Of a stretch of 64,000 bases of DNA, positions 9,297 through 52,068 are shown piece after piece (the stretch's first letter is position 1; each line of letters begins with the position of its first letter). This stretch comes from Bacteroidota bacterium (GTDB taxonomy: Bacteria; Bacteroidota; Bacteroidia; Bacteroidales; FEN-979). Below the pieces are notes generated by a model that was given only the letters and a program-made list of their open reading frames with translations, was not told the DNA's origin and searched no databases. The translations under genes were made by a program, and so were the position numbers. The stretch spans positions 8,298-72,297 of the forward strand of contig JBAXOB010000014.1 in the NCBI GenBank assembly GCA_037133475.1, written 5' to 3'.

Positions 9297-9364
9297 ATGT
9301 GGGAATTATATAATTAATCTCCATAATTCTACAAGAAGGAATCAGTTTAATAGCGTTACCTTGA
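9297..9364 (+). promoter_or_regulatory. Regulon promoter cassette 2 (hybrid kinase 9405), divergent copy
   Basis: ATGTGG GAATTATATAAT-N9-TAATTCTACAAG-N21-TACCTTGA; same spacing, weaker match. Confidence 0.65.
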
Positions 9365-15919: not shown

Positions 15920-15987
15920 CAAAGGTGAGATTATGTTCAAGGGAATTTGTTACACTACTTTGGCAATTAGTTACATGATTCACACCT
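15920..15987 (-). promoter_or_regulatory. Regulon promoter cassette 3 (csbD-2...Nramp operon)
   Basis: AGGTGT GAATCATGTAAC-N9-AAGTAGTGTAAC-N21-CACCTTTG. Confidence 0.9.
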
Positions 15988-16034
15988 GCGGTTCCAACCG
16001 GCGGGAAATACCCGCAGGCAGGTTTCAGCGCATG

Positions 16035-16715: not shown

Positions 16716-16783
16716 CAAAGATGGGTTGCCCCTGCTTGTGAAGTGTTATATAAATATGGGATTAAGTTGCAACATTCACACAT
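16716..16783 (-). promoter_or_regulatory. Regulon promoter cassette 4 (yceI)
   Basis: ATGTGT GAATGTTGCAAC-N9-TATTTATATAAC-N21-CATCTTTG. Confidence 0.87.
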
Positions 16784-16795
16784 TCACGGGTAATA

Positions 16796-18956: not shown

Positions 18957-19024
18957 CAAAGGTGTGCCCGTCGCGGGCAGTTTGTGTTACAAAATGTTGT
19001 AAATAACTTGCAATATTCACACCC
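18957..19024 (-). promoter_or_regulatory. Regulon promoter cassette 5 (BON-ohyA)
   Basis: GGGTGT GAATATTGCAAG-N9-ACATTTTGTAAC-N21-CACCTTTG. Confidence 0.85.
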
Positions 19025-19147
19025 AGGCTGTTCAACATGCTGCATGAAACCAGTCATGACGCCGCAGGGTCCCGCCCTGGCGTGGCCCCTGCACCATGGC
19101 AATTGTGTCACCTGGCCCGGATATCCAACATGAAGAGGATATTAACG

Positions 19148-19171
19148 TGATATTGAAATAGGTCAATATCA
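19148..19171. promoter_or_regulatory. Perfect inverted repeat TGATATTGA-N6-TCAATATCA (FNR/Crp-like core TTGA-N6-TCAA)
   Basis: 9-bp perfect arms between divergent cassettes 5 and 6. Confidence 0.4.
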
Positions 19172-19184
19172 GCCTCAGGGATCA

Positions 19185-19252
19185 ATGTGTGAATCATGCA
19201 AAGTATTTACAGATTTCTGTAACACTTTCAAGGGCGGGCATCCCTAGTTTTG
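19185..19252 (+). promoter_or_regulatory. Regulon promoter cassette 6 (mlaEFD-AI-2E)
   Basis: ATGTGT GAATCATGCAAA-N9-GATTTCTGTAAC-N21-TAGTTTTG. Confidence 0.9.
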
Positions 19253-25645: not shown

Positions 25646-25713
25646 CAAAGGTCGGCGAGTTCCATGGCCGGTGTGTTACACAATATTCTAAATGAGTTGC
25701 ATGATTCACACCT
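25646..25713 (-). promoter_or_regulatory. Regulon promoter cassette 7 (DUF3494 gene)
   Basis: AGGTGT GAATCATGCAAC-N9-ATATTGTGTAAC-N21-GACCTTTG. Confidence 0.9.
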
Positions 25714-25714
25714 C

Positions 25715-29169: not shown

Positions 29170-29237
29170 CAAAGGTCATTACACGGCTGGGGGATTGTGT
29201 TACATAATTCCGGGGAAGAGTTACATCATTCACATGC
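29170..29237 (-). promoter_or_regulatory. Regulon promoter cassette 8 (DUF6600-ompA)
   Basis: GCATGT GAATGATGTAAC-N9-GAATTATGTAAC-N21-GACCTTTG. Confidence 0.9.
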
Positions 29238-29251
29238 GGCTACTCTTCACG

Positions 29252-29319
29252 AAGTGTGAATCATGTAAGTAAATTCAATAAATATGTAACAATTAAGAAC
29301 TTACGGGTGCCCATCTTTG
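29252..29319 (+). promoter_or_regulatory. Regulon promoter cassette 9 (OmpA/MotB lipoprotein)
   Basis: AAGTGT GAATCATGTAAG-N9-TAAATATGTAAC-N21-CATCTTTG. Confidence 0.88.
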
Positions 29320-29349
29320 CACCTTGTTACTTACCTAAAAAAACAACCC

Positions 29350-30144
29350 ATGAAAAAACGAATTCTCGGCCTTGCATTTCTATCCCTTATTATGAGCATG
29401 GCTTTCATCTCCTGTGTATCAAATGCAAAATTCCTGGCCTCGGAAGCCAATGGCGCCAAACTCCAAAAGGAGAATTCCGACAAACAAAACCAGCTGATCG
29501 AGTGCACAGCCCAGGCAAAGAGGCTAAAGGATGAAAAAACCTCCCTGCAGGGTGAAAACGCATCCGTTCAAAATGACCTGAAGGCCCTGACTACCGAATC
29601 AAAAATGACCATTGCCGACCAGGCAAAAAGGTTGAAAAACCTGCAGTCGATGATCCAGTCGCAGCATGATGTCATGACAAGGCTTCAGAATTCAATTGCG
29701 GAGGCATTGCTTAACTACAAGGCCGATGAACTTTCGGTCTATGTTAAAGATGGTAACGTTTATGTGTCGCTTGAGGAGAAGCTGCTTTTCAAATCAGGCA
29801 GCGATGTGGTGAACCCCCAGGGCAAAGAGGCGCTGAAATCACTGGTCAAAGTGCTTAACAGCACGAAGGATATCACCGTTATGATTGAAGGACATACCGA
29901 CAACATCCCCATCAAAACAAAGCAGTTTGAGGACAACTGGGATTTAAGCACCGCAAGGGCCACCTCGATCGTACGGATCATGACCAATGACTATGGCTTC
30001 GACCCCATCCACATCACGGCATCAGGCAGGGGCAAATTTCATCCTGTGAAAACAAACGAAACAGCTGAAGGCCGCGCAGGAAACCGCAGAACGGAAGTGA
30101 TCCTATCTCCCGACCTGAAGGAGCTTTATAAGCTGCTGTATTAA
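29350..30144 (+). CDS. OmpA/MotB-domain lipoprotein
   Basis: Lipobox FISC, coiled coil, LLFKSGS..IEGHTDN..NWDLSTARA..NRRTEVIL. Confidence 0.9.
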   Translation: MKKRILGLAFLSLIMSMAFISCVSNAKFLASEANGAKLQKENSDKQNQLIECTAQAKRLKDEKTSLQGENASVQNDLKALTTESKMTIADQAKRLKNLQSMIQSQHDVMTRLQNSIAEALLNYKADELSVYVKDGNVYVSLEEKLLFKSGSDVVNPQGKEALKSLVKVLNSTKDITVMIEGHTDNIPIKTKQFEDNWDLSTARATSIVRIMTNDYGFDPIHITASGRGKFHPVKTNETAEGRAGNRRTEVILSPDLKELYKLLY

Positions 30145-30921: not shown

Positions 30922-31017
30922 GATTTCCCCCTTGACATCATGAATTCAACCCCCGGTGAATCATTCGCAACACATTGCTTCCGAACGGGTCACAGGCAGC
31001 AGCCAGGGCATCGCGCA

Positions 31018-31085
31018 ATGTGTGAATGATGCAAAATATTCGAAAAATTATGTAACGGCCACCGGCCGGGCCGGGCATACCTTTG
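31018..31085 (+). promoter_or_regulatory. Regulon promoter cassette 10 (lmo0937-like, AI-2E)
   Basis: ATGTGT GAATGATGCAAA-N9-AAATTATGTAAC-N21-TACCTTTG. Confidence 0.92.
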
Positions 31086-32421: not shown

Positions 32422-32528
32422 CTGTTACAAATAATTCGCAGTTGGTTGAAGGTTAAATTTACCGCAAGTTGCGCAGTGTTTCAGGCATTGTTGAAGGCAT
32501 AGCTATAAAGTTGACAAAGTCCTGAAAA

Positions 32529-32596
32529 TTGTGTGAATTATACAAATAATTTCAGGAATTGTGTAAAACTAAATCCTGTAATGTCCCCCAAATTTG
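32529..32596 (+). promoter_or_regulatory. Regulon promoter cassette 11 (araC-1, kinase, RR operon; putative autoregulation)
   Basis: TTGTGT GAATTATACAAA-N9-GAATTGTGTAAA-N21-CAAATTTG. Confidence 0.85.
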
Positions 32597-32751: not shown

Positions 32752-33321
32752 ATGAAAATTTATATTAAATACATGGTGAGTATCCGCTGTAAAATGGTGG
32801 TAAAAACCATCCTGAAAAAACTGGGGCTCCATTTCATCGTGGTCGACCTGGGCGAAGTGGAGATCATGGAAACACTCAGCGGGGAGCAGCACAGCCAGCT
32901 GGCGGTTGCATTACACGATGCCGGGCTTGAACTGATGGATGACAAAAGAGCGGTCCTGATTGAAAAGATCAAGAAGGTCATTATTGAAATGGTGCATTAT
33001 TCCGATGAAATGATCAAGGTTAACTTTTCTGATTTTTTAAGTAAAAAACTAAATCATGACTACACCTACCTGGCCAACCTGTTTTCAGAGGTCCAGGGAA
33101 CTACGATCGAGCATTTTATTATCTCCCATAAAGTAGAACGAATAAAAGAGCTGATCATTTATGACGAGCTAAACATCACGGAAATAGCATGGAAGCTGAA
33201 TTACAGCAGCGTTGCCCATCTGTCGAACCAGTTTAAAAAAGTCACAGGCCTCTCCCCTTCCCATTTTAAACAGCTGAAGGATAAACGGCGAAACCCGATC
33301 GAGGATGTGGGAAATGATTAA
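32752..33321 (+). CDS. AraC family transcriptional regulator with short N-terminal HMA-like domain (paralog 1)
   Basis: MKIYIKYMVSIRCKMVV...YTYLANLFS..LNITEIAWKLNYSSVAHLSNQFKKVTGLSPS double HTH. Confidence 0.93.
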   Translation: MKIYIKYMVSIRCKMVVKTILKKLGLHFIVVDLGEVEIMETLSGEQHSQLAVALHDAGLELMDDKRAVLIEKIKKVIIEMVHYSDEMIKVNFSDFLSKKLNHDYTYLANLFSEVQGTTIEHFIISHKVERIKELIIYDELNITEIAWKLNYSSVAHLSNQFKKVTGLSPSHFKQLKDKRRNPIEDVGND

Positions 33322-33372
33322 CGGATATCTCATAAATATTAGACAAATTATATGGAAATAGCAAAATCTTTG
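33305..33372 (+). promoter_or_regulatory. Degenerate 16th cassette at the araC-1 3' end
   Basis: ATGTGG GAAATGATTAAC-N9-ATAAATATTAGA-N21-AATCTTTG; spacing exact, boxes decayed. Confidence 0.35.
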
Positions 33373-36036
33373 GACTCGCAGTACACCAGGAGTTTGATGG
33401 AAACCTGCCTGGATCCCCTCGTGACCATCAACGAGAAGGGCCAGATAACCGACATGAACGCGGCATTGGTGACCATTACAGGAATTTCGCGTCAAAACCT
33501 GTCCGGAACAAACTTCTGCGATTGCTTTACCGAACCCGGTCATGCCACGGCGCTGTATATGGAAATTTTCACAAAGGGATCTGTTGGCGGGTCACATCTT
33601 TCACTTGTCAATCCTAAGGGTGCAATTTCCGAAGTGCTGATCAACGGCTCTGTTTACAAGGATAAAAATGGGATCGTACTGGGTGCCGTGGTAGTTGCCC
33701 GTGACATTGCCGGGCAAAAGCGGGCGCAGGAGCTGGTTATCGCCAACAGGGAACTTGCCTTCCAGAACGATGAAAAGGAAAAGCGTGCCCAGGAACTGAT
33801 CGTCGCAAACAAGGAACTTGCCTTCCAGAACGATGAAAAGGAAAAGCGTGCCCAGGAGCTGATCATCGCCAACAAGGAACTGGCCTTCCAGAACGATGAA
33901 AAGGAAAAGCGTGCCCAGGAGCTGATCATCGCGAATAAAGAGCTGGCCTTCCAGCACACCGAAAAGGAAAAAAGGGCTGCAGAACTGATCATTGCCAATA
34001 AAGAGCTGGCCTTTCTGAATGTCGAAAAAGAGAAACGGGCAGCAGAACTGATTATTGCCAACTATGCCCGCAGCCTGATTGAAGCAAGCCTTGATCCCTT
34101 GTTTACCATCAGCCTCGAAGGGAAAATCACCGATATGAACAAGGCTTCGGTTGATATTACCGGCGTGGCGCGTGAAAAATTGCTGGGTTCCGATTTTTTC
34201 GACTATTTCACCGAACCGCAAAAGGCACGGGAAGTTTACCTGGAGGTCTTTGCCAATGGCTATGTGGCGGATTACCCGCTCACGATCAGGGATGGAAAAC
34301 TGACCGATGTCCTTTTCAACGGCTCTGTTTATACCGATGACCAGGGCGAGGTTATTGGCGTGGTGGTCGTTGCACGGGATATAACCGATCAAAAAAGGGT
34401 TGCAACGGAATTAACCGAGGCCATCGTGTTTGCCGAACTGGCCACCGGAATCGCCGAAGAGGCCAAGATCAAGGCCGAAAATGCCACCCTTATTGCAGAA
34501 AATGCGGTCAAGGCAAAACAGCAGTTCTTGTCGAACATGAGCCATGAAATCCGTACCCCGATGAATGCCATTATCGGTTTCACCAAGGTGCTGCTGAAAA
34601 CCGACCTGTCGGTCAAGCAGCGGGAATACCTGACTGCTATCAAAATGAGCGGCGACGCACTCATTGTGCTGATCAACGATATCCTCGACCTTGCCAAGGT
34701 GGATGCCGGCAAAATGATATTTGAGCAAACCCCTTTTAAAATTGCCCTTTCCATTTCCGCCATGCTGCACCTGTTCGACACTAAAATACAGGAAAAAAAC
34801 CTGCACCTGTTTAAAGAGTATGATGACCGTATCCCTGACGTATTGGTTGGCGACCCGGTCAGGCTGCACCAGATCATCCTGAACCTGGTCAGCAACGCCG
34901 TGAAATTCACCACCAAGGGGTCGATAACCGTGAGCGTCCATATGATCAAGGAGGATGCAGAAACCGTAACCATTGAATTTACCGTTTCAGATACCGGTAT
35001 AGGCATCGCAGAAAACAAGATTGACAAGATTTTTGAAAATTTCCAGCAGGCTTCGAGCGGCACGTCAAGGTTGTATGGTGGCACAGGCCTTGGTCTTGCC
35101 ATTTCGAAACAATTGGTTGAAGCCCAGGATGGGACGATCCGCGCCGAAAGCACGATCAATGTCGGCTCCACCTTCAGCTTTATCCTGTGTTTCCTGAAAA
35201 CCAAGGTGGAGGCCGAATCTGATATGCAGATCCTGGAACTTGACAGCGAGATTAAAAACATCAAAGTGCTGGTTGCCGAGGATATCCCCCTTAACCAATT
35301 ACTGATGAAGACATTGCTGGATGATTTTGGTTTTGAACGGGATATTGCGGCCAATGGGAAGATTGCGGTTGAAAAGCTCAGGGAGAAACCCTATGATATA
35401 ATCCTGATGGACTTGCAGATGCCCGAGATGAATGGGTTTGAGGCGACAGAATATATCCGCAGCACGCTGAAACTTCAAATTCCGATCATTGCGTTAACGG
35501 CCGATGTAACCACGGTTGACCTGGCCAAATGTAAAGCGGTTGGGATGAATGACTACATCGCCAAACCTGTAGATGAAAGGCTGCTTTACAGCAAAATTGT
35601 CGGGTTGGTAAAAAAACCCGGGCTAACCAAGGAACCTGATCTATCAGAAACGGAATTGATGACCGTTGCAAAGCCCAGGTGCACCGACCTGGAATACCTT
35701 ATGCGCCGTACAAAATCAAATCCCAAACTGATGATGGAGATGATTTCACTCTACCTGGAACAAACACCCCTGCTGATCACCATCATGAAGAAAAGTTTCA
35801 GGGAAAAAGACTGGACATCGCTGCATGCTGCGGTGCATAAGATGATCCCCTCTTTTGCGATTATGGGGATCAGCGTTGACTTTGAAAACATGGCAAAAAA
35901 AGTCCAGGACTATGCCGGGGTGCAACAGCAGGCCGAAAGCATGCTGGACCTGGTCAGGCAGCTTGGGAACGTATGCACACAGGCATGCGGCGAGCTGGAA
36001 GAGGAGTTTAACCGGATCAAAAACGATAACCCGTGA
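33352..36036 (+). CDS. Hybrid histidine kinase (PAS, coiled-coil repeats, PAS, HisKA, HATPase, REC, HPt)
   Basis: FLSNMSHEIRTPMNAI, GGTGLGL, LMDLQMP, C-terminal AAVHKMIPS HPt-like helix. Confidence 0.94.
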   Translation: MEIAKSLDSQYTRSLMETCLDPLVTINEKGQITDMNAALVTITGISRQNLSGTNFCDCFTEPGHATALYMEIFTKGSVGGSHLSLVNPKGAISEVLINGSVYKDKNGIVLGAVVVARDIAGQKRAQELVIANRELAFQNDEKEKRAQELIVANKELAFQNDEKEKRAQELIIANKELAFQNDEKEKRAQELIIANKELAFQHTEKEKRAAELIIANKELAFLNVEKEKRAAELIIANYARSLIEASLDPLFTISLEGKITDMNKASVDITGVAREKLLGSDFFDYFTEPQKAREVYLEVFANGYVADYPLTIRDGKLTDVLFNGSVYTDDQGEVIGVVVVARDITDQKRVATELTEAIVFAELATGIAEEAKIKAENATLIAENAVKAKQQFLSNMSHEIRTPMNAIIGFTKVLLKTDLSVKQREYLTAIKMSGDALIVLINDILDLAKVDAGKMIFEQTPFKIALSISAMLHLFDTKIQEKNLHLFKEYDDRIPDVLVGDPVRLHQIILNLVSNAVKFTTKGSITVSVHMIKEDAETVTIEFTVSDTGIGIAENKIDKIFENFQQASSGTSRLYGGTGLGLAISKQLVEAQDGTIRAESTINVGSTFSFILCFLKTKVEAESDMQILELDSEIKNIKVLVAEDIPLNQLLMKTLLDDFGFERDIAANGKIAVEKLREKPYDIILMDLQMPEMNGFEATEYIRSTLKLQIPIIALTADVTTVDLAKCKAVGMNDYIAKPVDERLLYSKIVGLVKKPGLTKEPDLSETELMTVAKPRCTDLEYLMRRTKSNPKLMMEMISLYLEQTPLLITIMKKSFREKDWTSLHAAVHKMIPSFAIMGISVDFENMAKKVQDYAGVQQQAESMLDLVRQLGNVCTQACGELEEEFNRIKNDNP
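33718..34062 (+). repeat. 63-bp coding tandem repeat, about 5.5 copies (EKEKRAQELIIANKELAFQND)
   Basis: Visible in both DNA and protein between the two PAS domains. Confidence 0.95.
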
Positions 36037-36136: not shown

Positions 36137-36571
36137 ATGAAAACCGAAAATAAGATCAAATTGTTCCTGGTGGATGACGATGCCCTGTTTCTGAAATCAC
36201 TGGAAATTGAATTCCTGCAGCATGCCGACTTTGCCATTGAAACCTTTGCAACCGGCGAACTTTGTATAGCGGAATTATCGCACCTGCCGGATGTGATCAT
36301 CCTGGACTACATGCTCGACGGTATCGACAGGTTCGCCATGAACGGGATCGACACCCTCGATTTAATCAAGGCCTTCGACCCTGATATTCCTGTTGTCATG
36401 CTGTCATCGCAGGATAAAATCGAGGTCGCTGTGAATTGCATGCACCACAGGGCATTCGATTATGTGGTGAAAAGTGAAACTGCCTTCCTGCGGCTGCAGA
36501 AGATCATCTCCACAATTTTCAAGTACAAGAAAATGGAAAAGGAGTTGAACTGGTATATGGAGAGGATGTAA
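36137..36571 (+). CDS. Single-domain response regulator
   Basis: LVDDD, ILDY phosphoacceptor, MLSS, DYVVK; no output domain, only a short C-terminal helix. Confidence 0.93.
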   Translation: MKTENKIKLFLVDDDALFLKSLEIEFLQHADFAIETFATGELCIAELSHLPDVIILDYMLDGIDRFAMNGIDTLDLIKAFDPDIPVVMLSSQDKIEVAVNCMHHRAFDYVVKSETAFLRLQKIISTIFKYKKMEKELNWYMERM

Positions 36572-36749
36572 AACCTTCCCCTAAGATCAATGTTAACCCC
36601 CTTGTTGATCCGGCAGACCTGCATGCAAAATTGGTTCGCTGTAATACCTGAATTCCTGCAAGTTCCCTCCCGGGACGACCATTGAAGCAGGGTTCCAAAA
36701 TGTTTTATCCCTCCTACTTTTAACTGGCCTGTATCATTTCAAACCCGTT

Positions 36750-36817
36750 ATGTGTGAATCATGTAACATAATTTTGAAATTATATAACACATTCCGCATC
36801 ACCGCGAACGACCTTTG
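36750..36817 (+). promoter_or_regulatory. Regulon promoter cassette 12 (acidic protein, USP and downstream genes)
   Basis: ATGTGT GAATCATGTAAC-N9-AAATTATATAAC-N21-GACCTTTG. Confidence 0.92.
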
Positions 36818-38007: not shown

Positions 38008-38289
38008 ATGGAACCGATTAACATATTACACCTTGTTGAACCATCAGCAGGTACAGAAAAACAGAAGAAGACAACGACAGAAACCATTTTCAGGTTTCTA
38101 CTTTTTATTTTCATGCTGTCATGGGCAGCCTTACTGACATCGTGCTTCGTGGCCGTGCCCGTTTCGCGGCACCCGCCAAGGCCAGGTTTTATCATTGAGC
38201 AAAATGGCCATGATGAACATCATGACAACGGAAGGCATGAGGGGAGGAAAAACAAAGAAGAAAACCAGGAATACATCTCAACTCCATGA
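38008..38289 (+). CDS. Hypothetical membrane protein or lipoprotein with His-rich tail
   Basis: Hydrophobic segment ending LLTSC; [10 protein letters not shown] tail; stop 4 nt before the cbpA start. Confidence 0.6.
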
Positions 38290-38293
38290 CCTT

Positions 38294-39187
38294 ATGAACT
38301 TCGTTGACTATTATAAAATACTGGGAATCGATAAAAAAGCTACCCCGAAGGAGATCAAATCAGCCTACCGGAAGTTAGCCAGGAAACTGCATCCCGACCT
38401 GAACCCGAATGATAAGGAGGCTAAAAGCAAATTCCAGCAGATCAACGAGGCCAACGAAGTATTGAGCGATCCTGAAAAAAGAAAAAAGTACGATCAGCAT
38501 GGCGAGGACTGGCAACATGCCGATGAATATGAAAAGGCCCGCGGGGATCAGCAGCAATCGTCCGGTTCGCAGGGTTTCCGCTCAGGCGGCATGCCGCCTG
38601 AAGGCGATTTTTCAGCTTTTTTCGAATCCATGTTTGGCGGTTCAGCCAGGCCGGGAAGAGGTCGCCAGGTAAAATTCAGGGGGGAGGACTATCATTCGGA
38701 ACTGCGTCTGGCCCTAATTGATGCCGGTAAAACGCACAAGCAGACCTTGACCGTAAACGGGAACAATATCAGGATTACCATCCCCGCCGGCATTGAAAAC
38801 GGGCAAACCATCAAAATTTCAGGGCATGGCGGACCCGGAGAAAACGGCGGACCCGACGGCGACCTGTTTATCACTTTTTCAATTGAAAACCATCCCAAAA
38901 TAAAACGGCTCGGAAACAATCTATATACCACGGCCGACCTCGATTTATATACCGCCATCCTGGGTGGCGAGGTAACGCTCAATACCCTCACCGGGAAGGT
39001 AAAACTAACGGTGAAGCCCGAAACCCAGAACGGCAGCAGGATAAAATTAAAGGGGAAAGGGTTCCCGGTCTATAAAAACGAGGGCCAGTCGGGCGATTTT
39101 TATATTACATGGGCCATAAAAACACCCACAAATTTAACCGAACGTCAGAAGGAATTATTCACTGAACTGTCAACATTGCAATCTTAA
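38294..39187 (+). CDS. cbpA: CbpA-type DnaJ co-chaperone (no zinc finger)
   Basis: [29 protein letters not shown]-domain plus C-terminal DnaJ domain; cbpM downstream. Confidence 0.9.
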
Positions 39188-39196
39188 ACTGGAACA

Positions 39197-39496
39197 ATGC
39201 AACGGGAAAATTTAATAGCATTAGACGAATTCTGCGCCAGCCACGGCATCGGAATTTCATTTATCGGTTCATTGCAGGAGAACGGACTGATCGAAGTTAC
39301 CAGGATTAAAGAGAGCTCCTTTATCGAAGCTGATCAATTGCAAAAACTGGAGACAATTGTCAGGTTTTATTATGAACTTGACATCAATATTGCAGGAATT
39401 GAATCGATTACCCATTTGCTGAACCGGATCACCTCGATGCATGAGGAGATGACAGTACTGAGGAACAGGCTCCGCCTTTACGAATCATTCGAATAA
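39197..39496 (+). CDS. cbpM: Chaperone modulator CbpM (MerR-like HTH)
   Basis: EFCASH..GLIEV..RFYYELDINIAGIE..RNRLRLYE. Confidence 0.88.
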   Translation: MQRENLIALDEFCASHGIGISFIGSLQENGLIEVTRIKESSFIEADQLQKLETIVRFYYELDINIAGIESITHLLNRITSMHEEMTVLRNRLRLYESFE

Positions 39497-43506: not shown

Positions 43507-44373
43507 TTAATCCAGGTGGTAGATCAAGGTCACGCCTGCGCCCACATGACTCACAGGGAGAACCTTTAATTTCTTAAGGTGGTTGTTCATGATCGTCCGC
43601 CCGATGGCAAATCCCAGCGCCGATCCTACAAACACGTCGGAGAACCAGTGATCGTTCTGGTAAACGCGTGAGGCTGCGGTAAACCCGGCAAAAGAGAAAC
43701 AAAGAATGGGCACCCAGATGGTCTTGCTGTAGGAGGTGGCAACGACCGTGGCTATGGCAAAGGCAACCGTAGAATGTCCCGACGGAAATGAGCTGTTGGT
43801 TTTAAGGGTAAACGGCCCGTCCCATAAATTGGGATTTGGTGGATTATCCTCGTAGGGCCGGTGTCGCTGGGTAAGTTGTTTCAGCACCTCGGCGGCAACA
43901 AAACCCAGCACATAGGCCTCCACTCCTTTCAGTGCCGTATACCGGGCCTTGTCATTTTTGGTAATTGCCCCGACCCCGTATAAGATGCCCAGTGCCGGGA
44001 TACTGTAGAAGCCGCTTCCCAGCCTTTCAAATCCGTATTTTGCAGCCTGATCCAGGAATTGGGTATGGGATAACTGAACTGCTTTCTGAATCCTGGCGTC
44101 CTGGGTGAAGAGTACCGCGGTGACAAGCACGACACCTGAAGCGGCCATCCACTGGTATTTGTTCCACCTGTAAGGTGCAATGGCAATATCCCTTGAATCG
44201 GTCAGCCACGATTTGAAATAGGCCTTGTCGGGAATGGTCGAAAGCGTCCGTTCATTTTTAGGGATCGCCCGCAGCCTGACATAGGAGGTATCCTCCTGCG
44301 CCATTATGTTAACACCAGAGATAAAAAAAAAGACAATAACGATGATAGGGGCGATTTTCATTCGTGTCAACAT
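43507..44373 (-). CDS. PAP2 family phosphatase
   Basis: KQLTQRHRP, SFPSGH, SRVYQNDHWFSDV. Confidence 0.92.
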   Translation of the reverse strand: MLTRMKIAPIIVIVFFFISGVNIMAQEDTSYVRLRAIPKNERTLSTIPDKAYFKSWLTDSRDIAIAPYRWNKYQWMAASGVVLVTAVLFTQDARIQKAVQLSHTQFLDQAAKYGFERLGSGFYSIPALGILYGVGAITKNDKARYTALKGVEAYVLGFVAAEVLKQLTQRHRPYEDNPPNPNLWDGPFTLKTNSSFPSGHSTVAFAIATVVATSYSKTIWVPILCFSFAGFTAASRVYQNDHWFSDVFVGSALGFAIGRTIMNNHLKKLKVLPVSHVGAGVTLIYHLD

Positions 44374-44405: not shown

Positions 44406-44473
44406 CAAAAATAACATTTCCTTCAGGTTATTGTATTATATAATTCCGGTTGAATTTTACATAATTCACACAT
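44406..44473 (-). promoter_or_regulatory. Regulon promoter cassette 13 (PAP2)
   Basis: ATGTGT GAATTATGTAAA-N9-GAATTATATAAT-N21-TATTTTTG. Confidence 0.9.
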
Positions 44474-44542
44474 TCCCTTATTAAAAAACACCGGTCCTGA
44501 ATGGATCGGTGTCAACGCATGACGGCACTTCATCGTCTCTTT

Positions 44543-44751: not shown

Positions 44752-44819
44752 CAAAGGTACAGGTCAGAAAGCCGGCAAGTGTTACATAACAAAATGAATA
44801 ACTTACATCATTCACACAT
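44752..44819 (-). promoter_or_regulatory. Regulon promoter cassette 14
   Basis: ATGTGT GAATGATGTAAG-N9-TTGTTATGTAAC-N21-TACCTTTG. Confidence 0.9.
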
Positions 44820-44864
44820 TGTTGGCATAATTTCAACTGAACCGGCAATGCATTCCGTTATTTA

Positions 44865-47237
44865 TCAATGGACCAGGGCCCTGCTATTCCTTTTCCGCTC
44901 CCGGCGATATTTTTCCCTTGGCGGAAACTGGTTTAATTCATTCAACCTTTCGTAGGCTCTCAGTACCGATCGCGGGAACACCCCATGATAACTGATCCTG
45001 TAAAAAGAAAATCCATTATAGGGGATGACATTAACTGCCGCTGACATCTCAATCCTGTCTGCCACTTTCCTGCTTCTGAAAACTGAATAAAAAACCTCCG
45101 AGCGCCGGTGGTTCAACTCGCGGAACCTGTTATTTATCAAGGATGAATCGATAATCCTGGCATATTTTTCCTGGTTGGTGCAGAGTGCGGGGTCGTGGGT
45201 CTGGCTGTTTAAATACTGCAAAAAGCGGGGATCCTGCGGCGACAACCTGTCCACAGTTTCTGAATCATGTTCATTGAAGGTCCTGCTGGTTTTTTGACTG
45301 GCCGCCAGGAAATACTTTTTCTTTGCTTCAAAAAACAGGATATACTCCTTTTCCCTGGCATCGTACTGGTGCGGTTCAACAGAAACTACCGATCCGGGAT
45401 TTTCGGCAAGGAAGTCCGCCATTTTTATCATAAATTTTTTCTGCCTGTCGCTCAGTGAGTACTGGCGCATCTGCCATTTCAATGTGAGCGACTTTTCAAT
45501 TTCAGTCTCAAGGCTACTGACCTCCATCCGGTAAGGCGTGGTGAGCGGTTTTATAAAAATATTTTTAACAAGATCGGCCAGGATATCCCCCAGGTGGAAT
45601 TCAGGGACCTTCAGGTTTCCTGTTATCGGAATTTCATAGTCAATCACATTCCCCTTTTCACGGATTAATGACATGATAACGGTGAGCGGAAGCCATGTGA
45701 TGCCCCCGTTCTTCAAATGACCTGCAACCCGCGGGTCAATGATCACCAGGTGGTTATTGCTTTGGATGATCCCCTTCCTGACTTTCCACGACCCATTGAT
45801 TTCCAGGCTCCCCCTGTCAACAGGAAAGGAGGTGTAGGTGACCAGGTAGGGGTTAAACATGGCGACAGGCAGTTGCTGAAGGTGATATTGCAGATCAAAA
45901 TCGGTGCTGTCGCGGGGGTTTACTTTTAGGGTGACCATGGCATTGCCATATGGCAGAATCCCTGATTTAACAACCACATCAATCCATTTTTGCCTCTTAT
46001 AAACAGAATCGGCCGTTATCTCCAGCGGGCTTAACTCAACTGAAAATTTCTCGAAGGGTTTGTAGTCGTTGAATTTAACATCCCCCCTGCAAATTTCAAA
46101 CCTGTTGATCCTGTAGTTGCTCTGGAAAAAGTTCGCCGACAGCATTTTAATATAGCGGCCTATTTCAATGACAAGATTAAACCGGGCAGGATCTGAAATT
46201 ACCCGGTTCATTTTTCCAGCGCTGCTGTCAAAGATAACCTGCAGGTTATTAAGCTTTTCATAGTGTTCGAATTTGAAAATGGGGTGAATGAGCGATACGG
46301 TATCGAACTGGTATTGATGTTTGCCGGGGTTAATGTTGATAATTGACAGGCTGAGGCGGTCAAAGGAAAACAGGTCATCACTCCGGTTTTTCCCAAAATG
46401 AAAATCATTGATGGCCATCCGGCCTGCGGCCGAGAGATTTTGTTCATCCTTCAGGTTACCGGTTGCCTTCAGATCGACGTCGAGGTTGGCGGTGAACTTG
46501 CCGCCACTGACCAGGTCACGGAGGTACTGACCAATGAGGTTCAGGTCGAATTTACGGGCGATAACCCGGTACCGGTAATCCATTGTCCTGAAATTTATGG
46601 TAAAATCGCCCCTGATATCTCCTGCCCCGATACCGGGCTGAAGGGCAAACTTTGCCGCCAGGGTGTCGGCATTCCACCTTTTCCCGGTACTTTCGATATT
46701 TACGTGACGGATAAAATAGTCGACCGGAACCTGCCGTTCGTGAAAATAAAATTCACCTTCGGTAATGTTAACATGGAGAAAATTAAGATGGACCGCCGAA
46801 GAAGTTTTACGCTTTTTCGACGGGGTAAACCTGGTTACCAGGTCACTGAAATTAAAATCCTTTTTATCCATGAAAACCGTTCCCCTGGGCTTGTCGAGGT
46901 CGAGTTCAGTTATTTCAACAATTTTATGGAAGAGCTGATGCAGGGAGAACGTTGCGCTTAGCCCATTCGCCGTAAAAAAAAGGCTGTCGGCCGGCCGTCC
47001 TACATTCCACTTCGTTGATTCATAAATCTTAAGGTTGCTGATATGGACATAGCCGGTAAACGGATTCACATAAATCCAGCCCGTGGTGATTTTCCTTCCC
47101 GTTACCTCTTCATCATAACGTCCGACCAGGTACGCGGCCAATGGGGATGCCACGATGATAACAACCACAAAGAGAACTGTAACGGTACAGATCAGGATCG
47201 CAACCGATTTTATCAACCTGGATTTCGTAAATTTCAT
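44865..47237 (-). CDS. DUF748 (AsmA-like) protein
   Basis: N-terminal TM, VNPFTG, FNFSDL, IDYEIPITGNLKVPEF. Confidence 0.82.
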   Translation of the reverse strand: MKFTKSRLIKSVAILICTVTVLFVVVIIVASPLAAYLVGRYDEEVTGRKITTGWIYVNPFTGYVHISNLKIYESTKWNVGRPADSLFFTANGLSATFSLHQLFHKIVEITELDLDKPRGTVFMDKKDFNFSDLVTRFTPSKKRKTSSAVHLNFLHVNITEGEFYFHERQVPVDYFIRHVNIESTGKRWNADTLAAKFALQPGIGAGDIRGDFTINFRTMDYRYRVIARKFDLNLIGQYLRDLVSGGKFTANLDVDLKATGNLKDEQNLSAAGRMAINDFHFGKNRSDDLFSFDRLSLSIININPGKHQYQFDTVSLIHPIFKFEHYEKLNNLQVIFDSSAGKMNRVISDPARFNLVIEIGRYIKMLSANFFQSNYRINRFEICRGDVKFNDYKPFEKFSVELSPLEITADSVYKRQKWIDVVVKSGILPYGNAMVTLKVNPRDSTDFDLQYHLQQLPVAMFNPYLVTYTSFPVDRGSLEINGSWKVRKGIIQSNNHLVIIDPRVAGHLKNGGITWLPLTVIMSLIREKGNVIDYEIPITGNLKVPEFHLGDILADLVKNIFIKPLTTPYRMEVSSLETEIEKSLTLKWQMRQYSLSDRQKKFMIKMADFLAENPGSVVSVEPHQYDAREKEYILFFEAKKKYFLAASQKTSRTFNEHDSETVDRLSPQDPRFLQYLNSQTHDPALCTNQEKYARIIDSSLINNRFRELNHRRSEVFYSVFRSRKVADRIEMSAAVNVIPYNGFSFYRISYHGVFPRSVLRAYERLNELNQFPPREKYRRERKRNSRALVH

Positions 47238-47319
47238 TGGCGGTGGTATCGTCATCATTGCCGGATGGCCATGCGGTTACAGGATTACCCCCTGACAGGG
47301 GCCAAAGCCTAGCGACCTA

Positions 47320-48210
47320 TTATTTCAGGGCCAGCTGGCGGCCTGTTCCCAGTTTCCAGTGTACACTCACCCCAACTTCATCAGGAGAAGTAGTGAGACC
47401 AAGGGCAAGATACCTGCTGCAGGGAACCTTGTGTAATGCCGGCACCACGATCCCGATAACGGCGCCCAGCACAAAACCAACGGCAACATCCGAGGGGAAG
47501 TGATCCAGCGATTTTATCCGCGCATAACCTATAGCAAGAGGCGGTACCGATGCAGCAAGGTACAGGAGATATTTAACCGCCCCGATATTGGGATGATAAT
47601 CGCAATAGGCCTTGACCATAAAAAAGGTGCTGTAGGTGCACGATCCGACATGCCCGCTGAAAAATGAATTGCGGCTGTTGTTGTTCGCACGGACATCGTG
47701 GGCAAGGTCGGTATAATACACAACCGGGCGATAACGGTTGATGAAGGTTGGTCCGAACGGGCTGTAATTGTACATACTAAAGGTTACCGTGTGCCCCTCC
47801 ACGTAAATTAACAACAGGTCCAGCCAGTCCCGGCGCATATTTTTATCAATCATCAGCAGGCTGGGAAGCAGGAAAATACCAATCTCCCCGTAATCCGATA
47901 TTTTCTTGAATAATGGGCGGTCTGCCGGATTCTGCTGCAACGACCACCTGTCAATTGAGTTCAGTAAATTTCTCTGCAATTCCAGGTTTTTTGGAAGAAG
48001 TTCCTCATCGGTAACAGCTAATTTGTTTTTCAGGCGGCTGATGGCAAAAAAATCTCCTGCCATCCCCACGCCAATAATACTGCCTGTTACGATGTAGTTG
48101 ACACGATACACTTTTGCTTTTTTTACAACTGTTTTCGTTGAATCGGAAGATTGGCAAAAAATTCCCAGGGGAATGAAAATGACCGCAAAAAAAATGACCA
48201 GGGCTTTCAT
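47320..48210 (-). CDS. PAP2 family phosphatase
   Basis: RYRP, SFFSGH, ARIKSLDHFPSDV. Confidence 0.9.
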   Translation of the reverse strand: MKALVIFFAVIFIPLGIFCQSSDSTKTVVKKAKVYRVNYIVTGSIIGVGMAGDFFAISRLKNKLAVTDEELLPKNLELQRNLLNSIDRWSLQQNPADRPLFKKISDYGEIGIFLLPSLLMIDKNMRRDWLDLLLIYVEGHTVTFSMYNYSPFGPTFINRYRPVVYYTDLAHDVRANNNSRNSFFSGHVGSCTYSTFFMVKAYCDYHPNIGAVKYLLYLAASVPPLAIGYARIKSLDHFPSDVAVGFVLGAVIGIVVPALHKVPCSRYLALGLTTSPDEVGVSVHWKLGTGRQLALK

Positions 48211-48324
48211 AAGGTATAGTGCAAATTATGGGTGAATTTGCCGACGGCTACCTGGTGCCTGCGATCAGTTGCAATGGAAAAAATAATATTCAAACCAACT
48301 GCGGACAGGATAGGTCAACAGGTG

Positions 48325-48392
48325 CAAAGATGCAGCGGAATGGTTAAAGGAGTGTTACACAACTTTGAATGAAAGTTGCATCATTCACACAT
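48325..48392 (-). promoter_or_regulatory. Regulon promoter cassette 15 (PAP2-DUF748), overlapping the araC-2 stop codon
   Basis: ATGTGT GAATGATGCAAC-N9-AAGTTGTGTAAC-N21-CATCTTTG; AAT GTG TGA encodes Asn-Val-stop of araC-2. Confidence 0.92.
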
Positions 48393-48945
48393 TTTCGAGG
48401 GCGCTCCGCTTTTTTGTTTTGAGCGACTTAAAAAAGGAGGGCGTCAGGCCGGTCACCTTTTTAAACTGGTGGGAAAGATGCGCCACACTGCTGTAATGCA
48501 GTTTCCAGGCAATTTCGGAAAGGTTAAGCTCGTCGTAGATGATCAGCTCTTTTACCCTTTCAATTTTATGAAGGATCATAAAATGTTCAATGGTAATCCC
48601 TTTGGTTTCGGAAAAGATATTGGCAAGATAGGTATAATCGTAATCCAGTTTTTCGCACAGGTAATCTGAAAAATTCGTTTTTGGCAGTTCATCGGAATAA
48701 TGAATCATTTCAATAATGACATTCTGAATTTTTTCAATCAGGATGGCCTTTTTATCGTCCATCAGTTCAAGCCCCGATCTTCGTAAGGCAATTTTCAGTT
48801 GTTCACGCTGCTGTTCAGAAATATCTTCCATAACCTCAACTGTTCCCAGATCCACGGTAAGATGGTGCAGTCCCATTTTTTTCAATTCCTCCTTTACCAC
48901 CATTTTACAACGGATGCTTACCATGTATTTGATATAGAGCCTCAT
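48385..48945 (-). CDS. AraC family transcriptional regulator (paralog 2)
   Basis: MRLYIKYMVSIRCKMVV..LSEIAWKLHYSSVAHLSHQFKKVTGLTPS; highly similar to 32752-33321. Confidence 0.93.
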   Translation of the reverse strand: MRLYIKYMVSIRCKMVVKEELKKMGLHHLTVDLGTVEVMEDISEQQREQLKIALRRSGLELMDDKKAILIEKIQNVIIEMIHYSDELPKTNFSDYLCEKLDYDYTYLANIFSETKGITIEHFMILHKIERVKELIIYDELNLSEIAWKLHYSSVAHLSHQFKKVTGLTPSFFKSLKTKKRSALENV

Positions 48946-49045
48946 GCGAAGTATCCTTGTTTTATAACCTTTATCTTTTTATGTTCATTTATTTTCCTTA
49001 ATTCGTTCAATCCCGGCATTCCGGGTGAAATTGAGATGATCTGAT

Positions 49046-49053
49046 CAAAATTA
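49046..49053 (-). promoter_or_regulatory. Housekeeping -7 element of araC-2 (no cassette boxes)
   Basis: TAATTTTG matches TAnnTTTG; no box1/box2 at the expected offsets. Confidence 0.55.
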
Positions 49054-49063
49054 TAAGAAAGAA

Positions 49064-49098
49064 CACTACCCGTCCTGCAGCCTGTCAGGCGGGTAGTG
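49064..49098 (-). terminator. Hairpin terminator after the BACON gene
   Basis: CACTACCCG...CGGGTAGTG stem followed by a T-rich run on the minus strand. Confidence 0.7.
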
Positions 49099-49134
49099 CT
49101 CATTGACATCAAAAAATCAAGGATGCCTGTTTGA

Positions 49135-52068
49135 TTATTTTATGACAACCAGTTTCTTCACAAGCAGGTTACTCTCCGTGTTGATGATGATGTGGTAGGT
49201 TCCCTGCGGCGCCGCTGAAAGGTCAATTTCATATTCGGCGGATCCTTTGCATTCTTTGGTCAGGATTACCTTACCCGTGAGATCCTGAACGCTGACATCC
49301 ATCCTGCCTTTATTTGCCTGGCCCGGGATGATTTTAAAGATACCCCTGGTTGGGTTTGGGAAGATCTGAATGGAATTTTCGGGATGTTCAGCCACACCAA
49401 TGGTCGATTTTGCCTGGGAAACGGTAACGGTCTGGACAGGAAGCGACGTACCCGTAACCTGGATGTTGGCCACCCTTGCGAGGTGGTCGGTATTTACCGT
49501 ATAATCGGCTACGATGGTGCCATTTCCCGACCCGGAGGCGGTAACGGTGCACCAGGAGGCATCGCTGACCACGGTCCAGTTAACGTTGGCGGTGACGGTA
49601 AAGGCTGTAGTTCCGGCATCGAAGGATACATTCTGGATCGGGGGCGTTACACTCATCAAGGGGGTATAGCCTGCCTGGGTAACCGTAACGGTTTCGGAAG
49701 GGATCCCGGGGGCGGTAACCGTGACATTGCATACCCTTGGGTTCAGGGTGGGGTTCTCGGTATAGGTCGCAACGATCGCACCATTCATCGATCCCGAGGG
49801 TGTCACCGTACACCATGCAACATCGCTGGTAACCGTCCAGGTGGTGTTGGAAGAAACGCTGAACTGGGTGTTGCCTGCAGGAGAAGTTACATTGATGTTG
49901 TGCGGCGTAACCGACAGCATGGGAGCCACGGCAGCCTGGGCCACCGTAACAGTTTGTGATGAAACGCCAGTTCCGTTGACGGTAATATTGGCAACGCGCG
50001 GAGTTACGGCCGTGTTTGCCAGGTAGGTGACCTTGATGGTGTCGTTGTTGACTCCCGAGCCTGAACTGGTAATGGTACACCAGGCAGCGTCGCTGGCTGC
50101 AGTCCATGTCGTATTGGAATTCACCAGGAAGGTGGTTGTCCCGGCATCCGTCATCACATTACGGCTGGGAGGCGTAACGGCAAGAAACGGGGCAACAAGG
50201 GTGGTAAACGACATGTTGGTCCCCGAAGCGGGGCCACCGGCGCTGGAGGCAAAAATCCTGAAATAATAGGTTGTCGCACTCTGCAGCCCCGTAAGCGGAA
50301 CGCTGATATCCACGGGAGTAACGCCCGATCCTGCCGACAGGGTGGTCGTAGTATCGGTCATTCCAAACGGAGTGGTTCCATACCTGAAAAAGTAGGTTGT
50401 CGGCAGTCCGTTTGGATTGATCTGGCCGTTGATGTTGGCGGAATAGACCTTTACCGAATCGGCTGCTTTGGTAACGGCGACCGGCGGGATGCTGAATTTA
50501 AACGAGGCGATCTTGGTTTTCTGGTTGCCGCCATACATATCGGTATACCAGAATGTCTTGTCGTCGGTAGGGTCAACCGACATCTGGGAATAGTCTCCCC
50601 AGCGGTTGATCCCTGTCTGTGAATTTGTCCCGATCTGGATGGTATCTTCTGCAATATCAAGGACTCCGGTTCCGGCGGCATAGGCCGTTGCCGACTGTCC
50701 GCAATAGAGGATACTGGGATACATGGAGGTACTTGAAACGGAATAACCCAGCGCGAGTTCATTGAAGCCGTTCAGCATGATGCTGCCCATCCAGCGGCTG
50801 TGGATGTCGGGGGCGTAGGTTCCCTGTTGCCTGACCGACCAGGTTGAGGCGGTTTTCCGCAATTCATACCAGCGGATCCCGGCATGGTGCGCGCCGTCGA
50901 CATTCACGGTATGACAGCAGACGATGGTCTGGTAACCACCAAAATTACGGTACTGGGGCACATTCATGATCACCTGGGGGATGCCGTCAACGCGCTGGCT
51001 GGTACCCTTCTGGTCAATGTTGTTCCAGTTGTTGCCAAAGCTGCTGCTGAATGGCTGTACATCCAGCTGCTGCGTGCGGACGAAGGTTGAAAGCGAGGGA
51101 GTTGTCCAGTTGACGCTAAGTTCATATAGCCAAAGCTGGTCGGTCCCTCCACCCAAAGCGTCGTCGTTGAAGGCGATATACATGCCGGGAGTACCTGCAG
51201 GCGCAAGCGGACCATCGTTATCGATGGGTGGAACACACATAAAACCGTCGACAGAGGCGGGACGCCATGCATTGTTAAAGGCAATTGCCTGGGCTACACC
51301 CCCGGTAAGCATCTGGTCGCGCTGATAAACGTAAATGTCATTTCCCGAACTGTTGTTGTCGCCCATGTAATAACCGTCGCGCCAAACGCTGAATTTCGGG
51401 TAATCGGGCATGGCATCCACCGGGAAGGAGTACTGGTGCCACGAGCCCAGGGGATCGTTGGTAGCCGAGATGGCGAACATAATATAGTTGGTCCCTGAAT
51501 TCGGGATGGAAAATTCCGTCACGACATACCGGTCGGCCTGGTCATCATACAGCATAACAGGGTCGCCGTCATTCCTGTTGGCACCCGGCACACTGCCGAA
51601 AATCTGGTTGATATTGGTGGGACCGGCTACCAGGGTTCCCGATTTATCATAAATTGCATAAACACAGTTGATCAGCTGCATAAAATGGTTGCGCCCCGCA
51701 GTACCGTTGCAATCGGGGGGATAATAGGGTGAGCCCTGTCCCGGAAAATTCACAATCGGTGCTTTATTGCCGTTTTTCACAGTGCCCATAAAATCCTGCC
51801 ACGCAGGATCCGGACCTTTTGGCAAAGCGGTGGATGCATAAGGGAAAACACGCTTTTTCAATCCCTCATTCAGCTCACGTTTCTTACCCTTTTTCACAAG
51901 CTGATCAAATTCGGATTTTGTCATAACCGGGGCATCGCGAAGTGGTTTGCTAAGTCCATAATAGGTGCCGGTAACAACTTTGGCCGGGTGTACCGGGATA
52001 TCCTGGGCATAGAGCCCCAGCATAAACAGGCAGAAAAAGGTTGTAAGCAGTAAATGTCGTGTTTTCAT
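49135..52068 (-). CDS. T9SS-secreted protein with FnIII-like and three BACON domains
   Basis: Signal peptide; PPDCNGTAG..RWGDY domain; three repeats of SNTTWT..SDAAWCTVT..R; IFPNP T9SS tail. Confidence 0.85.
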   Translation of the reverse strand: MKTRHLLLTTFFCLFMLGLYAQDIPVHPAKVVTGTYYGLSKPLRDAPVMTKSEFDQLVKKGKKRELNEGLKKRVFPYASTALPKGPDPAWQDFMGTVKNGNKAPIVNFPGQGSPYYPPDCNGTAGRNHFMQLINCVYAIYDKSGTLVAGPTNINQIFGSVPGANRNDGDPVMLYDDQADRYVVTEFSIPNSGTNYIMFAISATNDPLGSWHQYSFPVDAMPDYPKFSVWRDGYYMGDNNSSGNDIYVYQRDQMLTGGVAQAIAFNNAWRPASVDGFMCVPPIDNDGPLAPAGTPGMYIAFNDDALGGGTDQLWLYELSVNWTTPSLSTFVRTQQLDVQPFSSSFGNNWNNIDQKGTSQRVDGIPQVIMNVPQYRNFGGYQTIVCCHTVNVDGAHHAGIRWYELRKTASTWSVRQQGTYAPDIHSRWMGSIMLNGFNELALGYSVSSTSMYPSILYCGQSATAYAAGTGVLDIAEDTIQIGTNSQTGINRWGDYSQMSVDPTDDKTFWYTDMYGGNQKTKIASFKFSIPPVAVTKAADSVKVYSANINGQINPNGLPTTYFFRYGTTPFGMTDTTTTLSAGSGVTPVDISVPLTGLQSATTYYFRIFASSAGGPASGTNMSFTTLVAPFLAVTPPSRNVMTDAGTTTFLVNSNTTWTAASDAAWCTITSSGSGVNNDTIKVTYLANTAVTPRVANITVNGTGVSSQTVTVAQAAVAPMLSVTPHNINVTSPAGNTQFSVSSNTTWTVTSDVAWCTVTPSGSMNGAIVATYTENPTLNPRVCNVTVTAPGIPSETVTVTQAGYTPLMSVTPPIQNVSFDAGTTAFTVTANVNWTVVSDASWCTVTASGSGNGTIVADYTVNTDHLARVANIQVTGTSLPVQTVTVSQAKSTIGVAEHPENSIQIFPNPTRGIFKIIPGQANKGRMDVSVQDLTGKVILTKECKGSAEYEIDLSAAPQGTYHIIINTESNLLVKKLVVIK

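Follow-up and report, generated by a model that had tools for sequence, protein, structure and literature searches.

Is the stop codon of a regulatory gene also part of the operator that its product may read, and has the double use been kept by selection? The question is raised by araC-2, a gene for an AraC-type protein in a window of 64,000 nucleotides, the whole stretch of DNA analysed here (positions 8,298 to 72,297 of contig JBAXOB010000014.1 from a Bacteroidota genome). The last two codons and the stop codon of araC-2 are at the same time the opening bases of a 42-nt cassette of two direct repeats that stands before a PAP2-family gene. The double use recurs in 49 of 125 homologs, and the segment 48325-48393 is probably an activator-dependent promoter of the AraC/XylS class II kind, the distal half-site of which was long ago fused to the regulator's stop codon.

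The 3' end of araC-2 and the putative operator that begins in it

araC-2 ends CTC GAA AAT GTG TGA and runs directly into ATGATGCAAC. The nine bases AAT GTG TGA open box 1 of the cassette, which has the form TGTGAATSATGYAAC-N15-TGTAAC. The initial annotation had read the gene end as GAA AAT GTG TGA, which is correct to the base, and had assigned the same bases to the start of box 1 of its cassette 15, the site at 48352-48393. That assignment was confirmed as well, with the refinement that the strongly constrained core shared by gene and operator is just TGTGA (48389-48385), i.e., the TG of the last codon plus the TGA stop; the AAT before GTG TGA is a weaker part of the motif. The features of the junction are as follows.

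48385-48945, minus strand: araC-2 coding sequence, 186 amino acids plus the stop TGA at 48387-48385 (open reading frame, translation, Pfam)
48385-48393, minus strand: doubly used bases AAT GTG TGA, codons 185-186 and stop, identical to the 5' end of box 1
48375-48393, minus strand: box 1, the distal half-site, AATGTGTGAATGATGCAAC (pattern match, alignment, 42-nt matrix)
48354-48366, minus strand: box 2, the proximal half-site, AAAGTTGTGTAAC, with TGTAA 21 nt after the TGCAA of box 1
48325-48332, minus strand: -7 promoter element CATCTTTG, of the TAnnTTTG type, its TTTG starting exactly 26 nt after box 2
47320-48210, minus strand: PAP2-family gene (Pfam), predicted to be driven by the cassette at the araC-2 end
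44865-47258, minus strand: DUF748 gene, 61 nt after the PAP2 gene and on the same strand

The cassette was recognized from its repetition in the window. The pattern ATGYAA-N16-TGYAA has 10 matches there; 100 shuffled versions averaged 0.29 matches, and none had more than 2. Aligned, the ten matches give a three-part signature: (A)ATGTGTGAATSATGYAAC, then 15 variable bases and TnTGTAAC(AC), then about 24 bases and (T)AnCTTTG. A 42-nt matrix was trained on nine of the ten, the second register of a triple site, at 29179, being dropped. It finds 15 sites in the window, nine of them the training sites, and only 18 in the whole 4.61-Mb assembly, 15 of which lie in C14:17,453-56,690. A 40-kb stress and envelope island thus holds 15 of the 18 genome cassettes together with both AraC paralogs, araC-1 and araC-2. 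The site at the araC-2 end scores 55.7, among the best, and its geometry is that of the other cassettes.

Two features of that geometry bear on function. The half-sites are direct repeats 21 bp apart, box 1 being strong (TGTGAATSATGYAAC) and box 2 weaker (AAnTTnTGTAAC), and TTTG follows the TGTAA of box 2 at exactly 26 nt in 14 of the 15 window cassettes, the exception being a weak site at 9296. At the araC-2 junction this TTTG is at 48328-48325, where the -7 box ends. The Bacteroidota -7 promoter consensus is TAnnTTTG. The cassette thus has tandem direct repeats two helical turns apart and a proximal half-site at a fixed position next to the -35/-33 region, the features of a class II activator site. 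We infer that transcription starts a few bases beyond TTTG; a look-up of sequencing runs gave nine, all of them DNA metagenomes. A search of the minus strand from the araC-2 stop to the PAP2 start gave no terminator-like site, and the DUF748 gene is probably in one operon with the PAP2 gene.

Two other identities for these sequences were considered and rejected. A promoter for an extracytoplasmic function (ECF) sigma factor, with -35 and -10 elements 16-18 nt apart, fails on spacing: past TGTAAC only the TTTG at 26 nt is conserved, and the bases in between are not conserved among the cassettes. An RNA element or terminator at the junction found no Rfam match (E up to 1, positions 47900-49200), and the predicted fold of 48205-48400 is ordinary (z = -1.54).

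Conservation of the overlap

Of 14 araC-2 orthologs from the same genus (80-95% identical), 13 close with AAT, GAT or AAA and then GTG TGA, and in these the offset of the cassette is unchanged. The one departure, L007, has its cassette about 100 nt past the stop. A wider set comprised 125 distinct homologous genes with complete 3' ends, taken from 30 relatives' loci and 80 genome-contig loci after identical copies had been removed. A gene of this set was assigned to the overlap class solely if, counting from the stop's first base, it has TRYAA at +7 and TRTAA at +28; 49 genes qualify. All 49 stop with TGA, and in all of them the last codon is NTG (GTG in 29, ATG in 14, CTG in 6). The remaining 76 homologs stop with TAA (43), TGA (23) or TAG (10) and use 27 different last codons. 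The initial annotation had expected fixed codon and stop usage in homologs that carry the boxes, and the aligned 3' ends bear this out: free variation of stop and last codon is confined to homologs without boxes, and the overlap is not a one-off.

The last residue of the overlap class varies (V, M or L) while the bases stay fixed. Because the residue changes and the bases TG-TGA do not, selection is on the DNA and not on the protein. A codon test on the 47 overlap-class genes of exactly 186 codons agrees. Codon 186 is the sole non-methionine codon with zero third-base entropy, the gene median being 1.46 bits. Val186 is GTG in 27 of 27 cases, as against the use of all four codons in each of the other eight valine columns, and none of 38 conserved four- or six-fold degenerate columns is restricted to a single codon. 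Six codons serve for Leu186 among the 24 homologs of the same length that have no cassette in the 400 nt past the gene.

The rest of the promoter is kept along with the overlap. Counted from box 2, TTT[GA] stands at exactly 26 nt in 40 of the 49 overlap genes, at 25 nt in five and at 20 nt in one; in three it was not found. The offset of the cassette from the stop is either 0 or at least 20 nt, with none at 1-19, ten genes having the cassette at 20-246 nt. By record title the overlap class includes Bacteroidales metagenome-assembled genomes (MAGs), Ferruginibacter, Emticicia, Arcicella and Pontibacter, as well as bins labelled Cyclobacteriaceae, Saprospiraceae, Flavobacteriales, Balneola/Balneolaceae and Melioribacteraceae. 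This taxon spread rests on the titles, and MAG labels are fallible, two loci being titled Akkermansia and Bifidobacterium. The comparison of gene ends confirms the overlap as an old feature in several classes of Bacteroidota, and a selected one as judged from its fixed bases.

Could the edge of the motif simply have met the stop codon by chance in this one genome? With just five strongly conserved bases shared, a coincidence might be entertained, but it is refuted by the same phase in 49 of 125 homologs, all with TGA and NTG, and by the unique third-base invariance of codon 186; the probability left to it is close to nil.

A further regularity concerns translation. In every one of the 49 overlap-class genes the reading frame, continued past TGA, meets the TAA of box 2 (window 48355-48387), a consequence of the 21-nt distance between the boxes, and 40 of the 49 also have a TAA three codons past TGA, where the window has CAA. 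These in-frame TAA codons are back-up stops behind TGA.

The AraC-2 protein

The C-terminal half of AraC-2 matches HTH_18 (52.7 bits, 5.5e-14, cut-off 33.6) and HTH_AraC (35.5 bits, 1e-08, cut-off 26.6). In the AlphaFold2 model, with a predicted local distance difference test (pLDDT) score of 91.8, residues ~70-186 match MarA, SoxS, the AraC DNA-binding domain and AdpA, with template modelling (TM) scores to the target of 0.7-0.8. The protein thus has the C-terminal domain of about 100 amino acids with two helix-turn-helix motifs that marks the AraC/XylS family. No NCBIfam model reached its cut-off for AraC-2 (the best gave 44 bits against a cut-off of 200), and the public records carry generic names only. 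In the best 80 loci the regulator is at least 70% identical, and the record titles of these loci span several classes.

The N-terminal domain is of another kind. Residues 1-62 have a beta-alpha-beta-beta-alpha-beta order and, in the prediction, the fold of the HMA-type metallochaperones GolB, CopZ and Atx1 (TM 0.63-0.71, with weak Foldseek E-values of 0.13-0.18); Pfam HMA gave no match to AraC-2. Unlike those metal-binding proteins, AraC-2 has in its metal loop M8-V-S10-I-R-C13, i.e., MxSxxC and not MxCxxC. Among 72 homologs C13 never varies, and at least 90% have S10. Classical metal binding by this HMA-like domain is therefore doubtful, and a thiol-based signal is a guess.

In the same 72 homologs the recognition helices (DYTYLANxFSE and YSSVAHLSxQFKK) are nearly invariant, and the core of the motif is likewise invariant. 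The variants TGTGA-ATnA and TGTGA-TnTA were compared with residues such as T110 and H/N159; with the helices so nearly invariant, the few differences track phylogeny. The two half-sites imply two protomers. The predicted complex with two AraC-2 copies reached a median of 0.37 against a mark of 0.42.

Which protein reads the cassette

The identity of the binding protein does not follow from the overlap. The initial annotation had taken the overlap as the best sequence-level evidence that this AraC family is the cognate factor; that identification has good support, which comes from motif and regulator occurring together and not from the shared bases, and it has exceptions in two genomes, G016 and G028.

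The first line of evidence is linkage. The pattern TGTGA-N4-TRYAA-N16-TRTAA has 137 matches in 860 kb around 80 homologs and none in a reversed-sequence control. The second is co-occurrence among 61 relatives, in which an araC-1/2-type gene was called at E below 1e-45. In 24 of the 26 relatives with such a gene there are 5-31 matches to the genus pattern. The 35 relatives without it have no match in 26 cases, 1-3 matches in eight and 14 in one (G016), and the backwards-pattern control gave 2 matches across all 61 genomes. The third is an even set of 401 high-quality Bacteroidota genomes, in which homologs were called at E up to 1e-50. A homolog is present in 79 of these genomes, from 53 of 180 genera, and at the same threshold in none of the 86 genomes of family f47; by this sampling the regulator is widespread but patchy in Bacteroidota. 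At least two matches to the degenerate pattern were found in 33 of the 79 homolog-bearing genomes, as against 4 of the other 322. Three of these four hold a relative that is 35-43% identical; the fourth, G249, has no relative at E up to 1e-10.

Three genomes of the phylum sample, G074, G079 and G084 (family f46), have 3-4 pattern matches, several with the typical core, and only a 35-43% identical relative. Divergent members of the family may read the same motif.

Direct repeats with a spacing of 21 bp are also used by LytTR-type response regulators. The cassette might then be read by such a regulator, or by an unknown protein, the AraC gene being merely a conserved member or neighbour of the island. 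The island does encode two hybrid kinases and one lone receiver domain, the overlap is silent on the binder, and G016 and G028 have cassettes but no araC-1/2 gene that we could find. Among the Pfam-scanned island proteins, however, there is no LytTR or other DNA-binding response regulator; the AraC pair has the only classical transcription-factor domains, the one other helix-turn-helix protein being a CbpM-like MerR_2 partner. The co-occurrence across the 61 and the 401 genomes also argues for AraC, as do the near-invariant recognition helices that match an invariant motif core and the density of the pattern, which in AraC-positive genomes is about 300-fold higher within 6 kb of the AraC gene than genome-wide. 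Further, the available text of one study describes direct-repeat binding as restricted to few regulators, mostly of the AraC family (PMC9723621). We regard a different reader as unlikely.

Several observations nonetheless weigh against the class II reading with AraC-2 as reader. In G016 (94% complete, 160 contigs) 14 cassettes are present, and neither an araC-1/2-type gene nor an ortholog of the hybrid kinase HK2 was found; its cassettes precede the same kinds of gene, namely DUF6600, DUF748, PAP2, OmpA and Nramp/AI-2E/Mla/Usp. The regulator gene of G016 may be unassembled. G028 (98% complete) has two top-scoring, perfect cassettes, one of them before a YceI gene, and only a 36% identical paralog was found. 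In G003, G023 and G025 there are 2-3 sites and no araC-1/2-type gene was found. Conversely, the homolog-bearing relatives G039 and G053 have 1 and 0 genus-pattern matches, and 26 of the 79 homolog-bearing genomes in the phylum sample have no degenerate-pattern match. The co-occurrence spans the whole island and cannot single out AraC, and related genomes are not independent. The stretch shared by gene and operator is short, with five strongly constrained bases. Finally, the tree is poorly resolved (of its 118 inner branches 63 are open). On it the overlap state has to change at least 19 times, just 2 of these changes being forced by the starred branches, so that a single ancient origin of the overlap is compatible with the data and not proven by the tree.

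G016 (L111-L116) and G028 (L117) belong to the window's own genus. A third paralog is found in that genus (G000, contig C1:12007-12597; L121:4008-4598), 196 amino acids long, 37% identical and with a full MTCSCC metal-binding motif. It was considered as the reader of the cassette and rejected: it is present in 35 of 36 sampled genomes of the genus, many of them cassette-free, it differs in the recognition helices, and it has no cassette nearby.

Taken together, the linkage, the co-occurrence and the helices point to AraC-2, and probably AraC-1, as the proteins that most likely bind both boxes and would switch on about 15 stress and envelope operons.

A putative class II promoter with a stop codon in its operator

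In the promoter proposed here, two regulator protomers would occupy box 1 and box 2, roughly at -71 to -58 and -47 to -36 when TTTG is placed with its G near -7. Once bound, the protomers would bring RNA polymerase carrying the housekeeping sigma factor to a Bacteroidota promoter of the sigma-A type without a -33 element, the place of which would be taken by the proximal box 2, with the -7 box at a rigid 26 nt. That the distal site begins inside the regulator's last codon would go back to a fusion of the ancestral gene end with the operator. From then on every mutation would have to satisfy both the stop codon and the operator, and NTG-TGA would thus be frozen. Having no terminator of its own, araC-2 would read into its first target, and any gene landing behind the junction would come under the regulator's control.

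Class II activation systems of the AraC/XylS family are known from AraC at araI1-araI2 (E. coli pBAD), XylS at Pm, RhaS, RhaR and MelR. The araC-2 junction resembles them in its two direct-repeat half-sites with a periodicity of about 21 bp, in a proximal site set at a fixed distance against the -35 element (here -33), and in a regulator with a C-terminal double helix-turn-helix folded as in AraC, MarA and SoxS; the likeness is drawn from sequence and predicted fold, and binding and activation are putative. It differs from them in that the N terminus of AraC-2 is a 65-amino-acid HMA-like ferredoxin fold and not a cupin domain for sugar binding and dimerisation, in the Bacteroidota -7 core promoter, in a regulon of stress and envelope genes and not a catabolic operon, and in the fusion of the distal half-site to a stop codon. 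As far as the predictions hold, the junction is a class II promoter of the AraC/XylS type whose regulator has an unusual sensor domain and whose operator includes a stop codon.

The junction shows clearly, in a natural setting, a stop codon under constraint from a putative transcription-factor site, and the double use of the stop is the evolutionary footprint of the operator's edge. Through the junction a very conserved regulator is physically joined to the promoter that comes first in a regulon of classic stress genes. The same junction is present in cultivable Pontibacter, Arcicella, Emticicia and Algoriphagus, where the binding site and the regulator are accessible. Literature searches, which did not cover supplementary files, found no published description of the regulator, the motif or the overlap.

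araC-1, a possible two-tier circuit and possible feedback at the junction

The paralog of araC-2 in the same island is organized differently.

32528-32569, plus strand: cassette upstream of araC-1 (score 37.1, TTTG at 26 nt)
32752-33312, plus strand: araC-1, paralog 70% identical to araC-2 (sequence comparison)

araC-1 is followed by a hybrid histidine kinase gene with a PAS domain (33352-36036) and then by a gene for a single receiver domain (36137-36571), and there is no cassette at its 3' end. In the wider set a cassette within 450 nt upstream occurs in none of the 49 overlapping genes, in none of the ten near-overlap genes and in 20 of the 66 others; in these 20 its distance from the start is mostly 81-122 nt. 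A single clade of the tree (support 92) takes in 39 of the 64 rows without a downstream cassette; it is free of overlap members and includes the kinase-linked genes. This division suggests a two-tier circuit in which the overlapping, araC-2 type would stand at the head of a small cascade.

The last bases of araC-1 (33283-33315; GAG GAT GTG GGA AAT GAT TAA C) look like a degenerate box 1: by eye, about 13 of 16 bases agree once two single-base indels are allowed, and neither a box 2 nor a -7 box accompanies them. Many of the kinase-linked homologs have the ending ...IE[DE][IV]GN. The resemblance could be a relic of a fused operator, or just homology of the last codons.

The overlap might also be functional in itself. 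Regulator bound at box 1 would then block the polymerase that is finishing araC-2, giving stop-less transcripts, rescue by transfer-messenger RNA (tmRNA) and degradation of the protein, i.e., a negative feedback. Operator O3 of the lac system lies at the 3' end of lacI. As with araC-2, the gene that encodes the regulator ends in a site for it (a putative one here), and the controlled promoter follows immediately; the accessible portion of one report describes truncated lacI transcript and SsrA tagging caused by LacI at O3 (PMC3711431). For araC-2, feedback of this kind would fit the start of the operator exactly at the stop codon in 49 of 125 homologs, with no offset between 0 and 20 nt, and the lack of a terminator between gene and site; as the overlapping type has no upstream cassette there is no positive loop, and a negative one is possible. 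The parallel has its limits, since LacI is a repressor and O3, by the same portion of that report, acts by looping and roadblock (PMC3711431), in contrast to the distal half of a putative activator site in an overlap kept across many Bacteroidota lineages. Moreover, in the ten homologs with the cassette 20-246 nt past the stop, adjacency persists without overlap, and one ancestral event followed by the double constraint explains the fixed phase without any added function. Such a roadblock thus seems to us quite unlikely. If it were true, a LacI-O3-like feedback would be conserved across the phylum in a candidate master regulator of the general stress response.

Genes behind the junction

What lies downstream of the fused operator varies. 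The first gene is PAP2 in 13 loci, the regulators of which are all at least 79% identical to araC-2. In other loci it is an araC-1-like gene (3), an ice-binding-like gene (2), an outer membrane protein (OMP) beta-barrel gene (2), a B12-radical SAM gene (1) or an SPFH gene (1), and in one locus each an OmpA gene, a receiver domain gene, a kinase-like gene and a homolog of the 146-amino-acid open reading frame (ORF) at 15181-15621. A short cupin-like protein gave a Pfam Cupin_2 match below the cut-off in one locus, and four more loci share its N-terminal sequence. The remaining loci have small proteins without a family.

The initial annotation had proposed that araC plus a downstream promoter travel as one portable unit. 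The part of this that stands is that the junction outlives its cargo across lineages; within the genus there is plain synteny, and no sign of mobility was seen. A mobile cassette, moving between loci and capturing genes, would account for the wide differences among lineages in the genes behind the kept junction and for the variable upstream neighbours within the genus, where a BACON gene was matched in 4 of 15 loci (L001, L002, L004 and L008), some of them incomplete. The order araC-2, PAP2, DUF748 is, however, kept in at least 13 genus loci, which is ordinary synteny; no transposase, integrase or flanking repeats were noticed around araC-2, although no systematic search was made; and ordinary rearrangement behind an inseparable junction yields the same picture. 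We therefore hold a mobile cassette to be very improbable.

The stress and envelope island

The other cassettes of the window are listed below. "Driving" means predicted from the position of the cassette upstream of the gene, on the basis of the matrix and the TTTG spacing; further grounds are given in brackets.

9156-9197, minus strand: cassette driving a CsbD-like gene (8906-9091) (also Pfam)
9296-9337, plus strand: weak degenerate cassette before the hybrid kinase gene 9405-11936 (score 20.6, no TTTG at 26 nt)
15947-15988, minus strand: cassette driving a second CsbD-like gene
16743-16784, minus strand: cassette driving a YceI gene
18984-19025, minus strand: cassette driving BON-domain and MCRA genes
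19184-19225, plus strand: cassette driving MlaE, MlaF and MlaD genes
25673-25714, minus strand: cassette driving an ice-binding-like gene for a cargo of the type IX secretion system (T9SS)
29197-29238, minus strand: cassette driving DUF6600 and OmpA-like genes (with a third TGTAA 21 nt on)
29251-29292, plus strand: divergent cassette driving the OmpA-family gene 29317-30144
31017-31058, plus strand: cassette driving DUF5670 and AI-2E transporter genes
36749-36790, plus strand: cassette driving a 119-amino-acid ORF and a Usp gene
44433-44474, minus strand: cassette driving a second PAP2 gene (43507-44373)
44779-44820, minus strand: cassette driving a 61-amino-acid membrane-protein ORF

Other members of the island are genes for YtxH, a DnaJ/CbpA-like protein with a CbpM-like MerR_2 partner, a P-type ATPase and Nramp. 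The two CsbD-like genes, YtxH, Usp, BON, YceI and the DnaJ/CbpA-like gene give the island a general-stress character. Sigma-B directs the general stress regulon of Bacillus subtilis, and these same genes are the targets by which the island recalls it, as a functional analogy only; unlike in the Sigma-B system, control would here fall to an activator together with the housekeeping sigma factor and not to an alternative sigma factor. We know of no general stress regulator described for Bacteroidota, and literature searches turned up none.

Some details of arrangement may be added. Cassettes form divergent back-to-back pairs at 29179-29292, 18984-19225 and 9156-9337, and at site 29197 the third TGTAA, one more 21-nt step downstream, overlaps the spacer to its -7 box. 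The DnaJ/CbpA-like gene and the 99-amino-acid MerR_2 (CbpM-like) gene that follows it occupy 38195-39496. Between the hybrid kinase and Nramp genes, at 12015-12186, there is a tandem array of an 8-nt unit (CATTCCTG) in 20.5 copies with 88% matches.

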